Assembly: GCA_963716255.1 (NCBI GenBank) | Contig: OY970303.1 | Span: forward strand, 7,767,217 to 7,791,216 | Length of the DNA stretch: 24,000 nucleotides | Origin: an uncultured Gemmatimonadales bacterium | Lineage (GTDB): Bacteria; Gemmatimonadota; Gemmatimonadetes; Longimicrobiales; Longimicrobiaceae | Reading direction: 5' to 3' | Shown here: positions 5,967-20,260 of the stretch, in pieces | How positions within the stretch are numbered: position 1 is the stretch's first letter | How the letters are laid out: each line of letters starts with the position of its first letter | The notes under the pieces: generated by a model | Told to the model about the DNA's origin: nothing | Database searches by the model: none | Seen by the model: the letters and a program-made list of their open reading frames with translations, nothing else | Translations under genes and position numbers: made by a program

Positions 5967-7022
5967 ATGATCCGCGTGCTCGTCGCCGAGGACTCCCGGG
6001 CGGAGCGCGCGCTCCTGGTGTCCATCCTGGAGAGCGATCCCGCCATCCGGGTGGTGGGCGAGGCCGCCGACGGCGCGCAGGCCGTGGAGATGACGCTGCG
6101 CCTCCGCCCGGACCTCGTCACCATGGACGTGCACATGCCTCTCCTGGACGGGCTGGAGGCCACCCGCGAGATCATGGTCCGCGCCCCCACGCCCATCGTG
6201 GTGGTCTCCTCCAGCGTCCGTCCCGACGACATCACCCTGTCGCTGCGCGCCACCGGGGCCGGGGCCCTCGCCGCGGTCGCCAAGCCCGAGGGCCCCGCCT
6301 CGCCCCGCTTCGAGGAGGACCGCGCCCAGCTCGTATCCATGGTCCGGGCCATGGCCGACGTCAAGGTGGTGCGCCGCTGGAGCGCCCGCCCCGAGGGCGG
6401 GGTTCCCCCGGCGCCCACGCCCGCCCCGCGGGCCCCCGTGCGCCTGGTCGCGGTCGCCGCCTCCACCGGCGGCCCCGTCGCCCTCCAGACCCTCCTGTCC
6501 GCGCTCCCCGCCTCGTTCCCGGTCCCCGTGCTGGTGGTGCAGCACATGTCCCGTGGCTTCGTGGAGGTGCTGGCGCGCTGGCTCGGCACCGCCACCGCCC
6601 TGCGCGTCAGGGTCGCCGTGGCGGGCGAGCGCCTAGTCCCCGGCACCGTGTACCTCGCCCCCGACGACCAGCACCTGGGCACGACCCCCGACGGCGCCGC
6701 CGTGGAGCTGTCCGCCGCCCCGCCGCTGGAAGGCTTCCGTCCGTCCGCGTCGCACCTGTTCCGCTCCGCCGCCGCCGCGTACGGCGAGTCGCTGCTGGCG
6801 GTGATCCTCACCGGCATGGGGAGCGACGGCGTGCGCGGCCTGCGCGCGGCGCGGGCCGCCGGGGCGCTGGTGCTGGCCCAGGACGAGGAGTCCAGCGTGA
6901 TCTACGGGATGCCGCGGGAAGCGGTGCAGGCGGGAGTCGTGGGGGCCGTGCTGCCGCTCGAGTCCATCGGACCGCGGCTGGCGAGTCTTGTTTCCGCGAG
7001 TGGGGTGGACGATTTGTTCTGA
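5967..7022 (+). CDS. cheB: Chemotaxis response regulator protein-glutamate methylesterase CheB
   Basis: The ATG at 5967 lies 8 nt after the cheA stop. It has an N-terminal receiver (IRVLVAEDS, LVTMDVHMP) and a methylesterase domain (AASTGGP, LVVQHM, GMGSDG, IYGMPREA). The product is 351 aa. Confidence 0.92.
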   Translation: MIRVLVAEDSRAERALLVSILESDPAIRVVGEAADGAQAVEMTLRLRPDLVTMDVHMPLLDGLEATREIMVRAPTPIVVVSSSVRPDDITLSLRATGAGALAAVAKPEGPASPRFEEDRAQLVSMVRAMADVKVVRRWSARPEGGVPPAPTPAPRAPVRLVAVAASTGGPVALQTLLSALPASFPVPVLVVQHMSRGFVEVLARWLGTATALRVRVAVAGERLVPGTVYLAPDDQHLGTTPDGAAVELSAAPPLEGFRPSASHLFRSAAAAYGESLLAVILTGMGSDGVRGLRAARAAGALVLAQDEESSVIYGMPREAVQAGVVGAVLPLESIGPRLASLVSASGVDDLF

Positions 7023-7032
7023 ACGGGGAAGG

Positions 7033-7176
7033 GAACTGACGGTTTTGGGCGTGCCCCCGGCTGGCGCCGGGGTCGGGCTTCGGCTCCGTAGGGCTGCAAA
7101 CAACGCAGCCCAACGGAGTCGAGCCCCGCGAAACGGCCCGCGGGTCTCGCCCCTTCGGGCCGGAATCCCTCACGCG
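7033..7176 (+). repeat. R1 multi-hairpin repeat, copy A, 5' body
   Basis: This aligns with 10084-10230, including an identical 44-nt block (7047-7090 = 10097-10140). Hairpins are CCCCGGC-TGGC-GCCGGGG (7055-7072), GGGCTGC-AAACAAC-GCAGCCC (7091-7111, nested in the CTCCGT/ACGGAG outer stem) and GAG-C-CCCGCG-AAACGGCC-CGCGGG-T-CTC (7121-7148). Confidence 0.9.
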
Positions 7177-7415
7177 GGGCTCGCGCTGGCGTCGGCTGGC
7201 CCCCCACCCGGCTCGCTTGAGGCTCGCCACCCTCCCCCGCAAGCGAGGGAGGGCTGACCGAAGGTCAGGCAGTTTGCCGTTGCGACCTGCGCCGGGAGGT
7301 CGGGGAAGGCTGCGCAGGAGGTGCGTTGTTCGAAGCCAGCGTGATCCCGCCCTCGCACGGAGCGTGAGCGAGTGCTCTGCGAGTCCCTTCGGGTTCCGCA
7401 CCGACGGAGCAGCCG
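7177..7415 (-). repeat. ~240-nt mosaic segment inserted inside R1 copy A (inverted relative to the related mosaic at 12941-13090)
   Basis: This segment is absent from R1 copy B, where body and tail are only about 14 nt apart. It contains the inverted R2 copy (7198-7253). It also has perfect small hairpins CTGACC-GAA-GGTCAG (7254-7268) and GACCT-GCGCCGGG-AGGTC (7285-7302). Weaker similarity to the reverse complement of 12941-13031 includes TTTGCCGTT vs TTTGTCGTT and ACGGAGC. Confidence 0.7.
7198..7253 (-). repeat. R2 repeat, copy A (inverted): hairpin plus conserved 29-nt box
   Basis: The reverse complement reads CCCTCCC-TCGCTTGCGG-GGGAGGG followed by TGGCGAGCCTCAAGCGAGCCGGGTGGGGGGCC. This box matches the one at 13056-13086 apart from one extra G, and it matches 10319-10349 closely. 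Confidence 0.88.
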
Positions 7416-7463
7416 CCCCCGGCCGACCCCAAACACCGGAGGCTGCCGAAGCACACCGTCGTT
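7416..7463 (+). repeat. R1 repeat, copy A, 3' tail
   Basis: CCCCCGGCCGACCCCAAACACCGGAGGCTGCCGAAGCACACCGTCGTT aligns with 10245-10290 (CCCCCGGCCAACTCAAACACCGGAGCCCGCCGGAGCACACGCTGTT). Confidence 0.75.
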
Positions 7464-7469
7464 CTCTCC

Positions 7470-8009
7470 CTACTCGGCGGCCTCCACCATCTCCAGCACC
7501 TCGCGGAGGGTGGTCTCTCCCCGGTCGCGCGCGTACCACTTCCGCACGTCCCGGTAGATCTCCTCCGGAGGTCGCGTGCCGGCGCTCTTTTCACGCAGCA
7601 CGAACTCCTGGAGCTCCGCGGGGCGCGGGCCCCAGCGGCCACGCGGGCGGAACTGCTCGTCGAGCAGGACGACGAGCGGGATGGAGCGGGCGGCGCCGGT
7701 CAGGTACGCGTCCATCAGCTCCGGGTTCTCGTCGCGCTTCACCACCCGCATCTCCAGCTGCGGCGCGGATCCGGCGAGCGCGGCGATCACCGGGACGGTG
7801 TTGGACGCGTCGCCGCACCAGTCCTCCGAGATCACCAGCAGCTTCCAGCTCCCCCCCGCCGCCGCCGCGCGCTCCAGCGCCCACCCGGGCACCCTCACCC
7901 CCCTCGCGACGCCCTCCCACAGGGCGCGGTTGGTCACCACCTCGTCCGCCATGTACGCGTCCCAGGTGAAGCCCCCGTCCCAGTACCCGCGGTAGTCCAG
8001 GTCCGCCAT
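7470..8009 (-). CDS. Thioredoxin-fold protein with single-Cys WCGD motif
   Basis: The 179-aa product runs from the ATG at 8009 (MADLDYRGYWDGG). A thioredoxin-like core is present (KLLVISEDWCGDASNTVPVIAALA, SIPLVVLLDEQF). The upstream part of the 237-aa ORF is Arg/Pro-rich and would run into the divergent gene's leader, so it was rejected. Confidence 0.78.
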   Translation of the reverse strand: MADLDYRGYWDGGFTWDAYMADEVVTNRALWEGVARGVRVPGWALERAAAAGGSWKLLVISEDWCGDASNTVPVIAALAGSAPQLEMRVVKRDENPELMDAYLTGAARSIPLVVLLDEQFRPRGRWGPRPAELQEFVLREKSAGTRPPEEIYRDVRKWYARDRGETTLREVLEMVEAAE

Positions 8010-8195
8010 TTCGGCTCCGCCAATCAGGTCGTGATCGTGCCGGCGCGCCCCCCGCGCCGCCAGTGCCCACGCCCCGTCCGCAAGCTGCGCACCCCGCCGA
8101 TCCGGACGGGGGCGGGCGTGGCTTTTGCATTCCCGCCCCGCTCGGCGCCCGAAGACCGGAGGGTCTTGGACCATCCACTTCAAACCAGACGGGAT

Positions 8196-9311
8196 ATGAT
8201 CACGAAACAGGACCTCGAGCGGCTGATGCAGCGGACGGACGGCGGGCGGCCCGTCCTCTCACTCTTCCTCGACATGTCGGTCAACTCCGACAACAAGCGC
8301 ACCCACAGCACCGTCTTCCTCAACCAGAAGCAGAGCCAGTTCGAGGAGCTGGACGGGAGCCAGGCCCCGGACGTAGGGGATGCATTCGACCGCGTGCGCG
8401 CATGGCTGGCCGACGGCTACGCCGAGGAGAACCGCGGCGTCGTCGTCTACACCGAGGTGGGAGGCGACTGGTTCGAGGCGCTCCAGTTCCCCGTCCCCGT
8501 GCAGAGCCGCGCGACCCTGAGCCCCCGCCCGCTGATCGCGCCGCTGGCGCAGGTCATCGGCAGCTACCACCACCACGGCGTGGTACTGCTGGACCGCGAG
8601 CACGTGCGCATCCTCAGCATCTACCTGGGCACCCTGCTGGACGAGTTCGAGGTGCACGGCGACCCGCTCCCCGTTCCCTCGCACGTGCAGGCCGGGGGAT
8701 ACTCGCAGGCCCGCTTCCAGCGCCGCAAGGCCGAGGAGATGCGGCATTTCTTCAAGGAGTTCGCCAAGGAGGTGGAGACCTTCGTGGGGCGCTACGGGCC
8801 CGACGACCTCATCATCCTGGGCACCGACGAGAACGTCGCCAATTTCCGCGAGTTCCTCCCCGAGCCGGTGCAGGCGATGGTCGTGTACACCGGCAACGCC
8901 TGGGTGGACGACAACACCAGCGACATCCTGGTCAAGATCCAGCCGCACCTGGAGGCGTACGAGGACCGCGAGCGGCAGGAAGTGGTGGAGCGCGTCCGCG
9001 ACCGCGTGGCCAACGACTACCTCGCCACCGCCGGCTTCCAGGGCACGCTCACCGCGGTGCAGGAGGGGAAGGTGGACACCCTGGTGCTCGCCCGCGACCA
9101 GAGCCAGGACGGCACCCGGTGCAAGACCTGCTCGTTCGTGTACGCACGCGGCATGGAGCGCTGCTCGTACTGCGGCTCCAGCGAGCTGGAGGAGGTCGAC
9201 GCCGTGGAGGAGCTGGTGCGCATGGCCGAGGGCCAGGGCGTGGAGATCGCCTTCACCGACCCGGGCCAGGTGGACGACCTCAAGGGAGTGGGGGCGCTGC
9301 TGCGCTTCTGA
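8196..9311 (+). CDS. Bacterial eRF1/aRF1-like protein (VLRF1/baeRF-type putative release factor / peptidyl-tRNA hydrolase)
   Basis: The 371-aa product runs from the ATG at 8196. The central region VPSHVQAGGYSQARFQRRKAEEMRHFFKEFAKEVETFV parallels the eRF1 GGQ-loop region ([33 protein letters not shown], from memory). The C-terminus EGQGVEIAFTDPGQVDDLKGVGALLRF parallels the eRF1/aRF1 C-terminal ...GFGGIGGILRY. A CKTC...CSYC insert lies at aa 309-326. Confidence 0.8.
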   Translation: MITKQDLERLMQRTDGGRPVLSLFLDMSVNSDNKRTHSTVFLNQKQSQFEELDGSQAPDVGDAFDRVRAWLADGYAEENRGVVVYTEVGGDWFEALQFPVPVQSRATLSPRPLIAPLAQVIGSYHHHGVVLLDREHVRILSIYLGTLLDEFEVHGDPLPVPSHVQAGGYSQARFQRRKAEEMRHFFKEFAKEVETFVGRYGPDDLIILGTDENVANFREFLPEPVQAMVVYTGNAWVDDNTSDILVKIQPHLEAYEDRERQEVVERVRDRVANDYLATAGFQGTLTAVQEGKVDTLVLARDQSQDGTRCKTCSFVYARGMERCSYCGSSELEEVDAVEELVRMAEGQGVEIAFTDPGQVDDLKGVGALLRF

Positions 9312-9354
9312 GGGCGTCCGGGACTCACCTTTCCCGAACGACCATTCCGCCCAC

Positions 9355-9387
9355 GGGGGCGCGGGCCATGCCCGCGCCTCCGTTTTT
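9355..9387 (+). terminator. Intrinsic terminator downstream of the eRF1-like gene
   Basis: GGGGGCGCGGGC-CAT-GCCCGCGCCTCC forms a 12-bp stem with one G-U pair. It is followed by G then TTTTT (9383-9387), and lies 44 nt after the stop codon. Confidence 0.7.
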
Positions 9388-9389
9388 GC

Positions 9390-9419
9390 TTGACATTCCT
9401 GCCTGCAGAACCGTACGTT
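9390..9419 (+). promoter_or_regulatory. Candidate sigma70-type promoter for the 9451 gene
   Basis: TTGACA (9390-9395), an 18-nt spacer, then TACGTT (9414-9419). This sits about 30 nt upstream of the ATG at 9451. The -10 element is weak and the promoter consensus for this taxon is unknown. Confidence 0.3.
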
Positions 9420-9450
9420 CCTCGTCCACCCACCTCACACGACACCGCGA

Positions 9451-10077
9451 ATGGCTTCTCCCCAACTGGACGAGGGCGGGCGGAAGCGTCTGCGCGCCGA
9501 CCTGGAATCCCTGGACGGAGTGCGCACCGCCCTGCTCGACGGCTCCCCCCTGGCCGTGTACCTGGTCTGCGACCACGGCGAGCCCGCGCAGCTCGAGATG
9601 CTCGCAGGCGCCGTGCTCGCCCGCCACCGCCTGGACCGCAAGGGCGTCGCCGTCCACGTGTCCTTTCTGGCGGGCCCGCAGCCCGCGCGCCGCGTGCGAT
9701 TCCTCCACGCCCGGGTCGCGCGTCCCAGCGCCGGCCGCGCCGTCGCCTCCGTCGCCCTGGAGTGGAGCGGGACCGTCTACGAGAACGAGACGGACGGGGA
9801 GAGCGGCGAGCCCATCGAGCTGCGCCTGGCCGCGCTCGCCACGCTGCGCGGCATCGAAGCCGTCATCGGCGGCGCGCTGCACTTCAAGCTGGTGGGAATC
9901 CGGACGCTGCGCGCCTTCGACACCGACATGGTCGCCGTCCTCCTGCACACCGACCACGGCAACAGCCCGCTCATCGGCGCGTCGCTGGCGCGCGAGTCGG
10001 TCCACGAGTCGGCCGCCATCGCCGTGCTCAACGCTACCAATCGCCTGCTCGGGAATTATCTCGCCACCGGGGAGTGA
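9451..10077 (+). CDS. Hypothetical protein (208 aa), no recognised domain
   Basis: This is a clean ATG ORF with balanced, non-low-complexity composition and an alpha/beta-like pattern. It lies between a terminator/promoter pair and repeat R1. No family motif was recognised by eye. Confidence 0.65.
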   Translation: MASPQLDEGGRKRLRADLESLDGVRTALLDGSPLAVYLVCDHGEPAQLEMLAGAVLARHRLDRKGVAVHVSFLAGPQPARRVRFLHARVARPSAGRAVASVALEWSGTVYENETDGESGEPIELRLAALATLRGIEAVIGGALHFKLVGIRTLRAFDTDMVAVLLHTDHGNSPLIGASLARESVHESAAIAVLNATNRLLGNYLATGE

Positions 10078-10083
10078 CGGCAT

Positions 10084-10290
10084 GAACTGCGGGTTGGGGC
10101 GTGCCCCCGGCTGGCGCCGGGGTCGGGCTTCGGCTCCGTAGAGCAGCAAACAACGCTGCTCAACGGAGTCGAGCCCCGGCGGAAACAGCCCCGCCGGGTC
10201 TCGCCCCTTCGGGCCGAAATCCCTCACGCGACGGCACGCCCCCTCCCCCGGCCAACTCAAACACCGGAGCCCGCCGGAGCACACGCTGTT
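10084..10290 (+). repeat. R1 multi-hairpin repeat, copy B (uninterrupted body plus tail)
   Basis: The body (10084-10230) aligns with 7033-7176 and the tail (10245-10290) aligns with 7416-7463. Hairpins are CCCCGGC-TGGC-GCCGGGG (10105-10122), GAGCAGC-AAACAAC-GCTGCTC (10141-10161) and GAG-C-CCCGGCGG-AAACAGCC-CCGCCGGG-T-CTC (10171-10202). Confidence 0.9.
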
Positions 10291-10294
10291 GGCC

Positions 10295-10349
10295 CCCTCT
10301 CCCAGAATTGGGAGAGGGTGGTGTGCCTCAAGCGAGCCGGGTGAGGGCC
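10295..10349 (+). repeat. R2 repeat, copy B
   Basis: CCCTCTCCC-AGAATT-GGGAGAGGG (10295-10318) is followed by TGGTGTGCCTCAAGCGAGCCGGGTGAGGGCC. After that comes a second CCGGGTGAGGG unit (10351-10361). Confidence 0.88.
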
Positions 10350-10391
10350 GCCGGGTGAGGGGCTTGCGCGTAAGGCACGGGCAGAAAAGAG

Positions 10392-10423
10392 GCGGCGCCG
10401 CACGGAACTCCGTGCGGCGCCGC
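10392..10423. terminator. Bidirectional intrinsic terminator between convergent genes
   Basis: GCGGCGCCGCACGG-AACT-CCGTGCGGCGCCGC is a perfect 14-bp stem. On the - strand it is followed by CTCTTTTCTG, downstream of the SLT gene stop at 10444. On the + strand it is followed by GAACGTTTTG. Confidence 0.7.
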
Positions 10424-10443
10424 GAACGTTTTGCCCCGGACCT

Positions 10444-11118
10444 TCAGTTGCGCCTGCCGAGGATCTTGCGGGAGTAGCCGTTGTCCGGGTCGATCCCCGC
10501 CCTCACCAGCTGGTCCACCCGTCCCGGGCCGCGGTTGTAGGCCAGCAGCGCCATGTTGACGTCGCCGCGGTACTGCTCGATCAGGATGTTCAGGAAGCGG
10601 AACCCCAGCCGCAGGTTCGTTTCCCGGTCGAAGATCTGGTTGTGGCTGATCCCCGGCCGGAGCAGCCGCGCCGTCTCCGGCATCAACTGCGTGTACCCGA
10701 GGGCGCCCACCGGGCTCACCGCGCGCTGGTTGAACTCGCTCTCCACCCGCACCAGCTCGAAGGCCACCCTGGGGTCGATCCGCTCCGCGAGCGCGATCTC
10801 CTCGATGGAGGCCGCCAGGTCCGCCCCGATCCCGTACTTGGCAGAGTAGCGGTGGATCCGCTCCAGCCGCTCGATCTGCATCTTCTGGAGGTCGATCTGC
10901 CCCTCCAGCGCCTGGAGCTGGGCATCGCCCGCGAGAAAGCGCTGCTGCCACTCCGCCGCCCACCCCGCCCCCGAATCCACCGACCCCGCGCCGAGCTGGA
11001 ACGCGAACACGAAGAGCAGGATCCCGAGCACCGCACCCCGTACCGCCGGCCAGATGTCCGTCCGTGGCTGCTTACGCGCAGCGACGTCTGCCTGCAGCTT
11101 GAGGAGAAGAGACTGCAT
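10444..11118 (-). CDS. Membrane-anchored lytic transglycosylase (SLT domain)
   Basis: The 224-aa product runs from the ATG at 11118, which is preceded by GGAGG. It has an N-terminal TM segment (AVLGILLFVFAFQLGAG), a coiled-coil segment and an SLT domain (VRVESEFNQRAVSPVGALGYTQLMPETA, ALLAYNRGPGRV). The longer ORF to 11241 would overlap moaC, so it was rejected. Confidence 0.85.
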   Translation of the reverse strand: MQSLLLKLQADVAARKQPRTDIWPAVRGAVLGILLFVFAFQLGAGSVDSGAGWAAEWQQRFLAGDAQLQALEGQIDLQKMQIERLERIHRYSAKYGIGADLAASIEEIALAERIDPRVAFELVRVESEFNQRAVSPVGALGYTQLMPETARLLRPGISHNQIFDRETNLRLGFRFLNILIEQYRGDVNMALLAYNRGPGRVDQLVRAGIDPDNGYSRKILGRRN

Positions 11119-11173
11119 AGCGCCTCCGGGCTTGAGTTGACCGGCCCAAAAGCAAGCCCCGTGCCCGGTGACC

Positions 11174-11671
11174 CTACTCCGGACCCGCCTCCCAGGCCCC
11201 GGAGCGGCCACCTTCCTTGCGTACCAAGCGGATAGCTTCAATGCGCATTCCGCGGTCGCGGGCCTTGCACATGTCGTAGATCGTCAGGAGTGCCACCGAG
11301 ACCGCTGTCAAGGCCTCCATCTCCACCCCGGTCCGCGCCTCCACCCGCGCCGTCGCCCGCACCCGCACCCCGGGCAGGGCCTCGTCCGCCTCCAGCTCCA
11401 CCTCCACCGAGCTGAGCGGGAGCGAGTGGCAGAGCGGAATCAGCTCCGCCGTCCGCTTGGCCCCCGTGATGCCCGCCAACTGCGCCACCAGCAGCACGTT
11501 GCCCTTGGGCGCCGTTCCCTCCACGATTGCCCGCACGGTCGCCGCCGAGGTGACGATCCGCCCCTCCGCCACCGCCACGCGGCGGGTGACTTCCTTGTCG
11601 CCCACGTCCACCATTCGCGGCCGCCCCTCCGCGTCCAGGTGCGTGAAGCCGCTCCCCTCCGGGCTCGTCAC
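11174..11671 (-). CDS. moaC: Cyclic pyranopterin monophosphate synthase MoaC
   Basis: The 165-aa product runs from a GTG at 11671, 7 nt after the holB stop. MoaC motifs are present ([68 protein letters not shown]). The start codon is inferred. Confidence 0.88.
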
Positions 11672-13031: not shown

Positions 13032-13086
13032 CCCTCCCCCAGAATTGGGGGAGGGTGGCGAGCCTCAAGCGAGCCGGGTGGGGGCC
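13032..13086 (+). repeat. R2 repeat, copy C
   Basis: CCCTCCCCC-AGAATT-GGGGGAGGG (13032-13055) is followed by TGGCGAGCCTCAAGCGAGCCGGGTGGGGGCC. Confidence 0.88.
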
Positions 13087-17279: not shown

Positions 17280-18590
17280 TCAGAGGTTGATGCGCACGTA
17301 GGTCGTGCGCAGCAGCTCCTCCAGCACCTGCTGCTGGATCTTCTGCTGCTGGACGGATTCGCGCACCTGCTCGCGGAACTCTTCCAGCGTGTACTCGCCG
17401 GCCTCGCGCCGCTCGTTGACCTTGATCACCCCCCAGCCGATGCCGTGGGTCCCGCCCTCCAGCTGCACGGGGCCCAGCACCGAGCCCGCAGCGGCGCCCT
17501 GCATCAGCGGCTGGTACTCCGGGGGAAGCCGGTCCAGCGGCACGTCCTCCGCGAAGCGCCGGTCGGCGGGGGTGTCGTAGCGCTCGGCCAGCGCGTTCAT
17601 GTCCGCCCCGGCGCGCGCGGCCGCGAGCACCGAGTCGGCGCGGACGCGGGAGCGGGCGCGGTCGGCGTCGTCCACCTCCGGGCGGATCAGGATGTGGCGG
17701 GCCTGGCGCTCGCCCGCGCGGGCCTTTTCCAGCTTGATGATGTGGAAGCCGAACGCCGTTTCCACGATCCCGCTCACGTCGCCCGGGCGCATGGCGAAGG
17801 CCACCTGCTCGAAGGGGCGGACCATCTGCCCCTGCTTGAACCACCCCAGGTCGCCGCCGCGCTCCTTGGAGCCGGGATCGTCCGAGAAGCGGCGCGCCAG
17901 CACCTCGAAGTCGCCGCCCTTGCGCAGCTCCTCCACCACCTGCTCGGCCTCGCGGCGCGCCGCGGCCTTCGCCGAGTCGCTGGGCGCCGGCTCCACGACC
18001 ACCTGCTCGAACGAGACCGTGGCCGGACGGGTGCCCAGCTGCGCGCGCTGCGACTCGAACGCGGCCTGGATCTCGGCGTCGGTGACCACCGGGCGCACCG
18101 CGTTCCCCACCCGCTGCGAGATGAAGCGGGCCACCATCATCCGCGAGCGGGTCTGCTCCAGCCGCCTGGCGCGGAACTCGGGCAGGGTGAGCCCGGACTG
18201 GGCCAGCGCCGCGTTGAACTCCGCCTCCGAGGGGAAGCGGCCGCGGATCTCGCGGATCTCCTGGTCCACGGTGCGCTCCACCTCGTCGTCGCCCACGGTG
18301 ACCCCGGCGAGCCTGGCGGCGTTCAGGGCGACCAGGTCGTTGACGCGGGTCTGCACGATCTGGCGCACCATCGTGGCCTGGCCCTCCGCGTCGGCGGGGA
18401 GCTGGCGACCGGCGGCGCGCAGCTGCGCGACCTCCTCCTGCACGTCGGAAAGGAGGAGGGCGGTGTCGCCCACCACGGCCACCACGCGGTCCACCAGCTC
18501 CTCCCCCTGCTGCGGGGCGGGAGCCTGGGTCTGCGCGGCGAGCGCCAAGGGCGCGGCGGCGAGGAGTGCGAACGCGGTACGGATGCGCAT
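17280..18590 (-). CDS. surA: SurA-like periplasmic chaperone / parvulin peptidyl-prolyl isomerase
   Basis: The 436-aa product runs from the ATG at 18590. It has a signal peptide ([20 protein letters not shown]), a SurA-like N-terminal domain and a parvulin domain (FSDDPGSKERGGDLGWFKQGQMVRPFEQVAF, GFHIIKLE). It lies upstream of pdxA, as in the classic surA-pdxA linkage. Confidence 0.85.
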   Translation of the reverse strand: MRIRTAFALLAAAPLALAAQTQAPAPQQGEELVDRVVAVVGDTALLLSDVQEEVAQLRAAGRQLPADAEGQATMVRQIVQTRVNDLVALNAARLAGVTVGDDEVERTVDQEIREIRGRFPSEAEFNAALAQSGLTLPEFRARRLEQTRSRMMVARFISQRVGNAVRPVVTDAEIQAAFESQRAQLGTRPATVSFEQVVVEPAPSDSAKAAARREAEQVVEELRKGGDFEVLARRFSDDPGSKERGGDLGWFKQGQMVRPFEQVAFAMRPGDVSGIVETAFGFHIIKLEKARAGERQARHILIRPEVDDADRARSRVRADSVLAAARAGADMNALAERYDTPADRRFAEDVPLDRLPPEYQPLMQGAAAGSVLGPVQLEGGTHGIGWGVIKVNERREAGEYTLEEFREQVRESVQQQKIQQQVLEELLRTTYVRINL

Positions 18591-18754: not shown

Positions 18755-20260
18755 CTACTGCGGCGCGCCGGGCTGCTGCCCGGGCTGCTGCTGGGGCTGC
18801 GCGGGCATCGCCTCCGGCTGCCCGGGCATGGGCATCGGCACCTGCTGGCCGGGGGCCGGCACGGCGCCGCCGGCGGGCGGGGCGCCGGGCATGGAGGAGC
18901 GGATGGTCTGCATCTGCTTCACCACCTCGGGGAAGGTCCCCTCGTTGACCTCGAAGTCGAACGCGCTGCGCAGCGCCGGGCTGAGCGGCCCCAGCTGCGG
19001 CACCTGCCGCGTCTGGCTGATGGCGCCCTCGATCAGCTCGCGGACGCGCGTCTCGATCACCGTGTTGGCGCCGGAGCCGCGCGGCAGACGGTTGAAGCCG
19101 GCCATGCGCACCATCTCGGAGATGGCCTGGCGGGTGCCGCGCCGGATGGTGTCCAGCTGCGCCGGGGAGGCGGTGATCTTGAGGCGCTCCGCCTGGTTGA
19201 GCAGGAGCTCCCGGTTGGTCATCTGCTCCACCAGGGCGTTGACCTGCTCGTCGGTGGCCTGCCCGAAGCTGCCGCGGGCCTGCGCCGGGAGGGTGCGCAG
19301 GAACTGCGCGAACTCGCCGGTGGTCAGCTCGCCGCCCTTGTACGAGGCCATGGTCCGCGACGCGGCGCGGCCCTTGAGCTCCAGGTTGTCCTGCTCCGCC
19401 AGCTCGCGCGCGATCTTGGCGGCGCCGGGCGCCACCTCCACGCCCGCGGCCTTGGTCAGCGAGTCCACGAAGGACTTCTCGGCGTCCTGCTGGGCCTTCT
19501 GCACCAGGAAGCGGGTGAAGTCCGCGCGCTGCTCGCCCATCTCGGTCTGCCGGCGGTCCTCCAGGCGGATGACGTGGTAGCCGAACGGCGTCTCCACCAC
19601 CGGGCTGATCTGGCCGGGCTGCAGCTTGAAGGCGGCCTCCTCGAAGGGAGCCACCATCCGCCCGCGCCCGAAGTAGCCCAGGTCGCCGCCCTGCACCTTG
19701 CTCCCCGGGTCCTCCGAGTAGCGGCCGGCCAGCGCGGCGAAGTCGGCGCCGCCGGCGGCCTGCGCGCGGACGGCCTCCGCCTGGCGGCGCACGCTGTCGC
19801 GCTGCGTGGGGGTGGCCTCGGCGGGCACCTGGAAGAGGATGTGGCGCGCGCGGATCTCGGCGCCGGGGCCCTCGGAAGCCCACTTCTGCTGGATCTCGGC
19901 CTCGGTGAAGACGGTGTCGGGGCGGATCACCTGGTCGCGCAGGCGCGCCATCACGATCTGGTCGCGCTGCGGGGCGAGGAGCTCGTCCATGTTGATCACG
20001 GCGAGCGTGGTGTCCTCGGCGGCGGCGGTGGCCAGCAGGGTGTAGTCCACCCACATGTTCGCCAGCTCCTGCACCACCTCGGGGGTGGCGGGGATCTGCG
20101 GGTTCGCCGCGAGCATGCGGGCGGCGTCCGCCACCTTCAGCTCCTTGCCTCCGGCCTTGGCGACAACGTCGGTGTGCGAGGTCATGGCCTTGCCGAAGCT
20201 GCCGCATCCCCCGGCGAGAAGGGGGGCGGCGGCCAGCAGGGCCCAGCGGGACAGCTTCAT
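18755..20260 (-). CDS. Parvulin-type peptidyl-prolyl isomerase, probable lipoprotein, with Pro/Gln/Met-rich C-terminal tail
   Basis: 501-aa ORF with a signal peptide carrying Cys ([14 protein letters not shown]) and a parvulin domain ([39 protein letters not shown]). It has a low-complexity tail ([27 protein letters not shown]). Confidence 0.85.

Follow-up and report, generated by a model that had tools for sequence, protein, structure and literature searches.

The window analysed here is the whole 24,000-nt stretch of contig OY970303.1 from an uncultured Gemmatimonadales bacterium and has a G+C content of 74%. It carries a chemotaxis cluster ending with cheB, followed by genes for a Thioredoxin_9 protein, a baeRF_family10 protein, a 208-aa protein and an SLT transglycosylase (Table 1). 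Two intergenic spacers, one behind cheB (site A) and the other between the 208-aa and SLT genes (site B), each contain a repeat that we call R1. Copies A and B are direct copies with a core of ~135-139 nt, and belong to an undescribed family of ~140-base repeats in the Longimicrobiaceae (Gemmatimonadota), whose genomes carry dozens to hundreds of copies.

R1 in the window and its comparative fold

An earlier note, made from the letters of the window alone, had described a ~200-nt unit present twice, with fully compensatory differences between the stems. Its alignment was reproduced. The two copies share an identical block of 44 nt (7047-7090 = 10097-10140) and a block of 21 nt, GGGTCTCGCCCCTTCGGGCCG, which occurs exactly twice, at 7142-7162 and 10196-10216 (expected 0.03). 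The hairpin with the AAACAAC loop reads CTCCGTA-GGGCTGC-AAACAAC-GCAGCCC-AACGGAG in copy A (7084-7118) and CTCCGTA-GAGCAGC-AAACAAC-GCTGCTC-AACGGAG in copy B (10134-10168); that is, the four substitutions between GGGCTGC/GCAGCCC and GAGCAGC/GCTGCTC amount to two exchanged base pairs. In the next hairpin, CCCGCG/CGCGGG of copy A corresponds to CCCGGCGG/CCGCCGGG of copy B, which is longer by two pairs through additions on both arms. The copies start 10 nt (A) and 6 nt (B) past the stop codons at 7022 and 10077, as had been noted.

The extent of the unit had to be corrected, since the repeat comprises only the 135-139-nt core (A 7041-7175, B 10091-10229). The similarity formerly taken for a conserved tail does exist (7417-7456 versus 10245-10284, 80%; D19), but it is not part of R1 and represents the 3' end of a separate repeat, R3. 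Likewise, the closing helix proposed between GCGUGC and GCACAC is not a feature of the family, in which the conserved closing helix is P1 (GCGUG/CACGC), located at the core.

Folding of the single sequence 10078-10295 (218 nt) gave a z of -6.1 relative to shuffled sequences. Mutual information calculated from 92 copies revealed a long-range pair missed by single-sequence folding, 40:128, in which the U/G of GGGCU[U/G]CGG pairs with the A/C of CCGA[A/C]AUCCC (U-A in 57 copies; G-C in 33, or in 32 of the genome copies counted below). The comparative fold, mapped from copy B, comprises 43 pairs in seven helices (P1, H1, P2, H2p, H2d, H3 and H4). P1 is the outer closing helix and encloses H1 (CCCCGGC-UGGC-GCCGGGG) and P2 (GGGCUUCGG/CCGAAAUCCC), and P2 in turn encloses a tight four-way junction with the arms H2, H3 and H4. 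H2 consists of the proximal stem CUCCGU/ACGGAG, an A.A mismatch, a 7-bp distal stem and the loop AAACAAC. H3 is built from CGAG...CUCG, a variable distal stem and the loop AAAC[A/U]GCC, and H4 is CCC-UUC-GGG. In copy B this model is ~10 kcal/mol costlier than the minimum free energy (MFE) structure. The pairs exclusive to the comparative model were paired in 97.8-98.9% of cases and those exclusive to the single-sequence MFE structure in 84-88.5%, indicating that family variation breaks the latter, and the MFE topology was rejected. An RNAalifold consensus from an alignment containing flanks was set aside for the comparative model in the same way.

Pairing was counted in 90 distinct genome copies and in an independent set of 97 metagenome copies. 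In the genome set, 98.5% of cells held standard pairs. Shuffles gave 90.0 +/- 0.3%, and sliding the partner by 1-3 columns left 33-48%. Double changes were observed at 14 pairs and in 260 cells (74.6 +/- 5.8 in shuffles), and the covariation score of 0.203, against 0.065, was reached in none of 500 shuffles. The metagenome set gave 98.9% paired cells, against 31-49% after sliding. It also contained compensated swaps in the proximal stem of H2, which is invariant in the genome set: CTCCGT/ACGGAG was replaced by CGGAGT/ACTCCG in three copies, with the pairing kept, and CGCACT/AGTGCG was found in two. The copies in both samples are overwhelmingly compensatory, the element is conserved well beyond this strain, and no Rfam model reached its gathering score anywhere in the window. 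The earlier note had named an Rfam match, non-compensatory copies and a lack of conservation outside the strain as results that would tell against it; none of the three was found.

The distal stems of H2 and H3 vary freely provided that they remain paired, and at least 25 H2-distal variants were seen, nearly all perfectly paired. Most other positions, more than 100 nt, are fixed in sequence. The proposal that selection acts on secondary structure rather than on primary sequence is supported by the pairing kept across the family, with the qualification that the greater part of the core shows high sequence conservation too, so that the constraint concerns more than structure. One recurrent variant of H1, CCGG to CTCG on both arms (alignment columns 20-21/31-32), occurs in 9 of the 90 genome copies, for example those of L015, L053, L052, L039, L061, L074 and L085 (L-numbers are labels of the source loci or contigs compared). 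This change is parallel rather than compensatory, creates two adjacent mismatches, and is the sole recurrent departure from pairing in the family.

We also compared G.U with A.C combinations as a test of which strand is folded. G.U prevailed in the genome set (16-40 versus 5), which was suggestive, but the asymmetry was absent from the metagenome set, in which both were equally rare (11 and 10, 0.26% of cells), and the test was dropped. Equal rarity would be expected if inserted copies decayed neutrally, with perfect stems kept in propagating lineages.

Distribution, placement and orthologous sites

The genome copies were collected from species-representative genomes with the pattern CTCCGTA-N7-AAACAAC-N7-AACGGAG, in which only the flanks and loop of the variable hairpin are fixed. 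At least 83 stretches matched, and all of those listed were in five metagenome-assembled genomes (MAGs) of Gemmatimonadota/Longimicrobiaceae; one MAG carries at least 41 stretches, and many stretches lie 40-90 nt from a contig end. The 94 matches among those listed contained 16 different stems, with all seven positions paired in 15 of the 16 variants (93 of 94 matches). Searching these loci with a profile of the core gave 119 hits, some of them to copies whose loops differ. The independent scan of metagenome contigs used a pattern fixing only the 3' part of the core; its stretches, at least 120 in number, yielded the 97 new full-length copies, none of them identical to the genome set. Altogether, the profile had 272 hits in 1.11 Mb of source DNA. 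Considering that all source genomes are MAGs or metagenome contigs, the copy numbers are lower bounds. Partial hits were almost all contig-edge truncations, the others being internal deletions; only ordinary genes were present among the open reading frames (ORFs) and Pfam matches, and no autonomous parent element was found in this fragmentary DNA. Clustering of ORFs and Pfam searches identified MacB/FtsX proteins, histidine kinases, NRPS and PilB-like proteins among the neighbours. Two scans of viral contigs, made with regard to a phage origin, returned 0 matches, and a literature search found neither the R1 sequence nor anything on repeats in Gemmatimonadota.

Placement relative to genes was counted for 209 full copies with a crude gene caller based on G+C at third codon positions (GC3). 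An upstream gene was called for 135 copies, on the same strand in 101 and on the opposite strand in 34. Spacers between convergent genes held 22 copies and those between divergent genes only 2, and in tandem contexts 25 copies were sense and 14 antisense. The same-strand stop codon lay 5-36 nt before the core in 84 of the 101 cases, and three resolved sites showed R1 behind the stop codon and ahead of the terminator. R1 itself has no U-tract at its end. Its core ends in CACGC followed by G-rich sequence, and the actual terminator of the spacer at site B is a separate hairpin (10392-10423), so that R1 was rejected as an intrinsic terminator. No sigma-70-like promoter was found in 6900-10600, and the TTGAAC of the leader has no -10 partner.

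Of 115 stop codons next to R1, 95 are TGA. The TGA belongs to a TGAAC unit for 29 of these 115, compared with 68 of 828 among all stops. CheB of the window and of L084 has a C-terminal extension ending in CTGAACGG, and L089 has no such extension. On the strength of this enrichment and of the CheB extension in the window and L084, the leader of the repeat can supply a stop codon, and it often provides the TGA or overlaps with it; that of cheB appears to be supplied by the TGAAC leader of the repeat.

Orthologous loci were retrieved through homologues of the 208-aa protein, whose source names are Longimicrobiaceae and Gemmatimonadetes; they share the order Trx9, baeRF, 208-aa, SLT, MoaC, holB and M23. 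Site B is empty in L088, L084, L089 and L090, where the 208-aa protein is 92%, 89%, 80% and 75% identical to that of the window, and the spacer of 86-106 nt contains only the bidirectional terminator. In the window the spacer measures 366 nt, and the terminator is its sole segment common to the empty sites; the added segment, 10078-10349, consists of the leader, the core, an R3 fragment and a further repeat, R2. L085 (73% identity) carries an R1 of a different subfamily at site B, with a different leader and 3' module, and its closer relative L090 is empty. Judging from these sequences, two lineages filled this spacer independently.

At site A, L089 has an 89-nt spacer and a shorter CheB, and lacks the whole mosaic. 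L084 has the leader, H5 (a hairpin module described below), R2 and R3, and lacks 7037-7174, corresponding to the core; the window reads GGGAAC, the intervening core and then CGGGGCTC, whereas in L084 GGGAGC is joined directly to CGGGAGGT. Two further comparisons came from other loci. The site at L043:6353 is filled and that of L100 empty, the insertion again following the stop codon and preceding the terminator. L062 and L057, whose flanks are 92% identical, both carry R1 right behind one and the same stop codon, as a full copy in L062 and as a short form in L057, and their leaders are unrelated. In view of this presence and absence at the same site in close relatives, R1 behaves as a mobile element rather than as a single-copy RNA gene.

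Among the 90 genome copies, 25 H2-distal and 33 H3 variants occur in 68 combinations. Orthologous copies with flanks 89-91% identical differ by two or four compensated H2 pairs, by a different type of H3 and by the covarying P2 pair, and these stem differences far exceed what the divergence of the flanks predicts. Because either version of the stems is frequent in other members of the family, the simplest account would be that copies swap hairpin cassettes by way of the invariant blocks, re-insertion being the alternative. Therefore, the differences between copies A and B of the window are differences between family variants, probably exchanged as cassettes, and not paired mutations in place. 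The variants themselves had to arise under a pairing constraint.

Leader, modules and companion repeats

Upstream of the cores lies a variable leader of one to five units of ~11 nt containing GAAC(T/G)GC. Its enrichment peaks precisely 7 nt and ~17 nt ahead of the cores, with 59 of 359 occurrences of the motif at fixed offsets. It is a shared flank in L100/L043, but at site B it arrived with the insert, the leader of copy B being absent from the four empty sites; L085 has none. Tandem arrays of 7-8-nt and 11-nt units also occur in intergenic regions, often bordered by GAACGGC/GCCGTTC. Their units include GTACTNC (L014, L073 and L011) and CTGTCCC/CTGTAAC (L077, L060, L004, L003 and L012), and 11-nt GAACNGCTTT units lie at L019:3280-3340 on the minus strand, their number differing between the orthologous loci L149 and L019.

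On the 3' side, ~45% of cores are followed by the H5 hairpin, whose general form is GGGGCUCGCG-CUGGCGUC-CGCGGGG. H5, with loop CUGGCG(UC), and H1 have a similar loop, CUGGCG, in the same orientation. H5 was rejected as an obligatory right end of R1, since L084 has it without the core. This H5 of L084 (L084:1735-1765) stands alone, and in recurrent short forms H5 is fused to the 5' part of R1, as at L062:4195-4130 (minus strand), near 2438 in L023 (minus), near 4674 in L077 (minus) and at L057:2311-2360. H5 may be the minimal recognised unit of the system. Other 3' continuations are a long hairpin (CAACUGCUKG...CCAGCAGUUG) with R2, a C-rich module and unique sequence. Derivatives with internal deletions join H1 to H5, or H1 to H3 via the common CCCCGGC.

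R2 is a 55-nt repeat of two hairpins, a perfect one, CCCTCTCCC-AGAATT-GGGAGAGGG, followed by GGCGAGCC-TCAA-GCGAGCC-GGGTGAGGGCC. The first 92 sources contained 25 hits, in both orientations and often beside R1. One R1 copy, in L020, is interrupted directly behind its CACGC by an inserted 79-nt unit that includes R2, and this position suggests nesting at a specific site. R3 measures ~190-200 nt (GATCTGCGCCGGGAGGTCGGGGGAGGCTGCGCAGG...GTTCGAAGCCAGCGTGATC...CCCCGGCCGACCCC.ACACCGGAG) and has no Rfam match. Six copies were found in the same 92 sources (the window, L084, L022, L050, L057 and L083); in five of the six it lies downstream of R1 in the same orientation, with differing modules in between. 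Copy B is followed by only the last ~55 nt of R3, with which 10230-10290 aligns. No R1 bearing this tail was found elsewhere except where a whole R3 follows, and the tail was accordingly rejected as part of R1. R3 could itself be a further structured element, or else the distal part of some larger composite.

Three further observations were made. At L045:1541-2610, a toxin-antitoxin pair, HepT/MntA (HEPN ribonuclease/nucleotidyltransferase), is flanked by an R1 truncated at its 5' end (1563-1615) and a full copy in inverted orientation (2607-2475), an arrangement that could be an R1-mediated rearrangement or capture. The baeRF_family10 and 208-aa genes of the window (8031-10077), beside the divergent Thioredoxin_9 gene, keep their order in all eight related contigs (L084-L091); because relatives carry this pair without the repeat, it is unrelated to R1. 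A 191-nt direct repeat of 72% identity (17728-17918 and 19560-19750; D1 in the repeat-finder listing) is inside a long minus-strand coding region.

Table 1. Features of the window and the related positions in other loci
Feature	Position	Strand	Remarks
Chemotaxis cluster	CheB end 7022		CheR, MCP, CheA-CheW-REC, CheB
CheB end/leader regions	7020-7036; L084:1700-1720; L089:1360-1377
R1 copy A	7037-7175 (core 7041-7175)	+	H2 distal 7091-7097/7105-7111; nhmmer E = 4.8e-36
H5 module	7176-7199	+	hairpin, GGGGCTCGCG-CTGGCGTC-GGCTGG
R2, inverted	7201-7253	-	I1, I7
R3	7262-7463	+	~190-200 nt; 3' end 7416-7463, the earlier 'tail'
Thioredoxin_9 gene	7470-8183	-
baeRF_family10 gene	8031-9311		bacterial eRF1-like, ~370 aa
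208-aa protein gene	9451-10077		no Pfam match
Leader of copy B	10078-10090	+	CGGCATGAACTGC; carries GAAC(T/G)GC motif
R1 core, copy B	10091-10229	+	139 nt; nhmmer E = 1.7e-37
P1, copy B	10099-10103/10225-10229
H1, copy B	10105-10111/10116-10122
P2, copy B	10125-10133/10214-10223
H2 proximal, copy B	10134-10139/10163-10168
H2 distal, copy B	10141-10147/10155-10161		loop AAACAAC
H3, copy B	10170-10182/10191-10203
H4, copy B	10205-10207/10211-10213
Non-R1 sequence 3' of copy B	10230-10290	+	GACGGCACGCC (can pair with 5' GGGCGTGCC), then 45-55-nt R3 3'-end fragment
R2	10295-10349	+	55 nt, two hairpins, CCCTCTCCCAGAATTGGGAGAGGG...GCCGGGTGAGGGCC; D11, I7
Terminator hairpin	10392-10423		ancestral, bidirectional; spacer of 208-aa and SLT genes
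SLT transglycosylase gene	10444-11241	-	holB also in neighbourhood
R2, third copy	13032-13086	+	no adjoining R1
R3 copies in other loci	L084:1812-1990; L022:5829-5659; L057:6559-6716; L083:3367-3191; L050:4910-5028

The nature of R1

Several known families share features with R1. Like the REP/BIME and REPIN-RAYT elements of Enterobacteria and Pseudomonas, R1 is high-copy, extragenic and GC-rich, with hairpins whose stems vary in a compensatory manner; it forms mosaics with other short motifs, is placed after genes and before terminators, and is non-autonomous, the REP enzyme acting in trans and having no need to adjoin its repeat. Compensatory changes are common in mobile REP doublets (PMC3116915). 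However, a REP is a short imperfect palindrome and the mobile REPIN consists of two inverted REPs forming one long hairpin (PMC3116915, PMC3337134), whereas R1 is a branched fold of 135-139 nt with seven helices and two junctions, and not a 20-40-nt palindrome or a doublet hairpin. In addition, its look-alike hairpins H1 and H5 are direct rather than inverted, and no RAYT was seen among the ORFs of the loci (1.1 Mb, fragmentary).

The BOX (boxA-boxB-boxC), RUP and SPRITE elements of S. pneumoniae are small (<200 bp), folded and modular repeats in transcribed spacers (PMC3049150). R1 resembles them in its extensive predicted structure, modularity, location in transcribed intergenic DNA and nesting of repeats, as well as in a slow turnover with orthologous and non-orthologous copies between strains. 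The mosaicism known from BIME and BOX was also found, in that the core is followed by H5, the CAACTGCTKG hairpin with R2, the C-rich module, R2 in either orientation or R3, before the terminator. R1 differs from BOX and RUP in phylum and base composition and in a far stronger position-by-position conservation; their terminal inverted repeats pair and they have target duplications, whereas R1 has the 5-bp P1 and no visible duplication. With miniature elements derived from IS200/IS605 (PATEs), which depend on a Y1 transposase and folded single-stranded DNA, R1 shares the lack of clear terminal inverted repeats and of a visible target duplication. It may further resemble them in its same-strand hairpins near both ends (H1, and H5 in ~45%) with the loop CUGGCG, the GAAC(T/G)GC motif on the 5' side, and short forms keeping the two end hairpins (L062, L023, L077 and L057). 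Unlike in PATEs, L084 has H5 but no core, about half of the copies lack H5, and the 5' motif at site B was brought in by the insert. Neither TnpA nor TnpB was found, and described PATEs have nothing like the large internal cloverleaf. With regard to miniature inverted-repeat elements, only GCGTG...CACGC (5 bp, P1) closes the core, and no insertion sequence (IS) with such ends was seen. Integron attC sites were rejected, since copies of R1 occur in both orientations, dispersed over many contigs between housekeeping genes. As far as the comparison reached, R1 does not have the defining features of any one family among the structured interspersed repeats of bacteria (REP/BIME/REPIN, BOX/RUP, Correia and IS200/IS605 miniatures), and is unusual in the size and rigidity of its fold, with more than 100 nt fixed and two stems free.

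Based on its copy number, dispersal, insertion polymorphism, independent filling of a site, mosaicism and covariation, we place R1 with the structured interspersed repeats. It is likely, in our judgement, a small, non-coding and non-autonomous mobile repeat, structured and mosaic in the manner of REP/BIME/BOX elements, in Longimicrobiaceae and related Gemmatimonadota. Among the candidates of the earlier note, a REP/BIME-like or MITE-like element fits best, and the suggestion of an RNA borne in a 3' untranslated region (3'UTR) is partly right, as a description of location. The fold of one strand, as RNA or single-stranded DNA, would be read by a trans-acting machinery that copies or moves R1, and lineages losing the pairing would stop propagating. 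The combination of more than 100 fixed nt with two free stems points to a dedicated factor reading this folded strand in trans. Variable hairpins would be swapped between copies by recombination or gene conversion across the invariant blocks, and inserted copies would mostly be passengers in 3'UTRs.

Several results weigh against this explanation. No transposase, recombinase or reverse transcriptase adjoins any copy or occurs among the 461 ORFs of the first loci, and a tblastn search of the 1.1 Mb of fragmentary MAG/metagenome DNA with an approximate IS200 TnpA query gave a best E of 0.27; with sources of this kind, failure to see a partner gene counts for little. Apart from the 5-bp P1, the element shows no clear terminal inverted repeat. 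Four filled/empty comparisons (window A/L084; window B/L088, L084, L089 and L090; L085/L090; L043/L100) showed no target-site duplication, although the junctions are blurred by 10-20% divergence and a duplication of 1-3 bp may have escaped detection. More than 100 nt fixed in sequence is more constraint than a typical miniature transposon requires and resembles a functional RNA. The 3:1 sense bias relative to the upstream gene (101 versus 34) is a further such point. Finally, in the closest orthologous pair, L117/L046 (flanks 95% identical), the stems are the same and the six differences are all at unpaired positions, a hint that copies may be constrained where they stand.

R1 might instead be mainly a cis-acting RNA element of 3'UTRs, such as a barrier to 3' exonucleases or a site of processing or protein binding, transcribed with the upstream gene and selected at each locus, with its spread secondary. 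Besides the unpaired differences of L117/L046, the position between stop codon and terminator at the three resolved sites, the predominance of same-strand upstream genes with closely preceding stops, the avoidance of divergent, promoter-bearing spacers (2 versus 22 convergent) and the excess of G.U over A.C in the genome set speak for such a role. BIME, BOX and ERIC elements have been reported to affect co-transcribed genes (PMC3049150), which we counted in its favour. However, close relatives lack R1 at the same genes, roughly one copy in four runs antisense to its neighbouring gene, with 25 sense and 14 antisense copies in tandem contexts, and R1 ends in no U-tract or terminator. The equal numbers of G.U and A.C in the metagenome set are as expected for unselected recent mutations and not for the wobble tolerance of an RNA. 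We consider a mainly cis-acting role, the chief rival reading, unlikely, if still worth keeping in mind.

More doubtful is a reading of R1 as the RNA component of an undiscovered RNA-dependent mobile system, either an omega-RNA-like guide scaffold (as in IscB/TnpB or HEARO-like orphans) or a processing ribozyme, with the H2 and H3 stems as expansion segments or specificity determinants. Very strong conservation over more than 100 nt, two free stems, four-way and three-way junctions, the A-rich loops AAACAAC and AAAC[A/U]GCC, the high copy number and the evidence of mobility would all suit it. The HEARO and omega RNAs of IscB and the right-end RNAs of TnpB are also structured RNAs (150-300 nt) with a conserved core and variable stems, multi-copy, mobile and often without an ORF. 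But none of the 272 copies has IscB, TnpB or a different candidate ORF beside it, and no associated nuclease gene was seen in the 1.1 Mb; apart from the weak tRNA-Sec match discussed below, no Rfam model, those of ribozymes and transposon-associated RNAs included, matched R1 at E <= 10. Moreover, there is no promoter-like site and no variable guide-like segment, the leader being a recurring motif rather than free sequence, and membership of the omega RNA/HEARO/TnpB families was rejected on the absence of such genes next to the 272 hits, on the lack of an Rfam match and on this leader. A broader form of the idea, equally speculative, would make R1 the RNA or folded single-strand part of a mobility system not yet described in Gemmatimonadota. 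As scaffold or ribozyme, its ~100 invariant nt would be read by a dedicated protein with a single gene elsewhere in the genome, the hypervariable, always perfectly paired stems would determine lineage identity or specificity, and the TGAAC leader array would allow landing at the ends of reading frames by providing a new stop. The idea that R1 is tRNA-like, tRNA-derived or a diverged member of another known RNA family is hardly tenable. The sole Rfam match to R1 at E <= 10 over 6950-10500 was tRNA-Sec on copy A (22.1 bits, E = 0.43), and the motif GGG-CCGAAAU-CCC resembles a T arm. The score is far under the cut-off of 47, copy B has no such match, and ARAGORN reported 0 tRNA or tmRNA genes. 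The covariation pairs CCGAAAUCCC with the distant GGGCUUCGG (P2), and CUCCGU with ACGGAG, two segments that the tRNA-Sec alignment assigns to different arms. The tRNA-like reading was rejected on the ARAGORN result and on this incompatibility with the tRNA-Sec alignment.

Returning to R1 as a mobile structured repeat, its comparison also carries a warning, in that fully compensatory differences between two copies may come from cassette exchange as well as from mutations that arose pairwise on the spot. Although abundant in soil, Gemmatimonadota have very few cultured members, and essentially nothing of their non-coding or mobile-repeat biology has been described. Since contigs end inside the repeat, R1 explains the fragmentation of these MAGs, and it can serve directly to mark where close lineages have recently gained or lost an insertion. 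Hundreds of copies with a complex fold, two stems free and the rest frozen amount to an uncommonly clean natural experiment and point to a specific protein partner. If this partner were a new transposase or RNA-guided enzyme, R1 would be the map of its substrate; if R1 instead acted as a module of 3'UTRs, mRNA ends in the phylum would have in it a widespread regulator.

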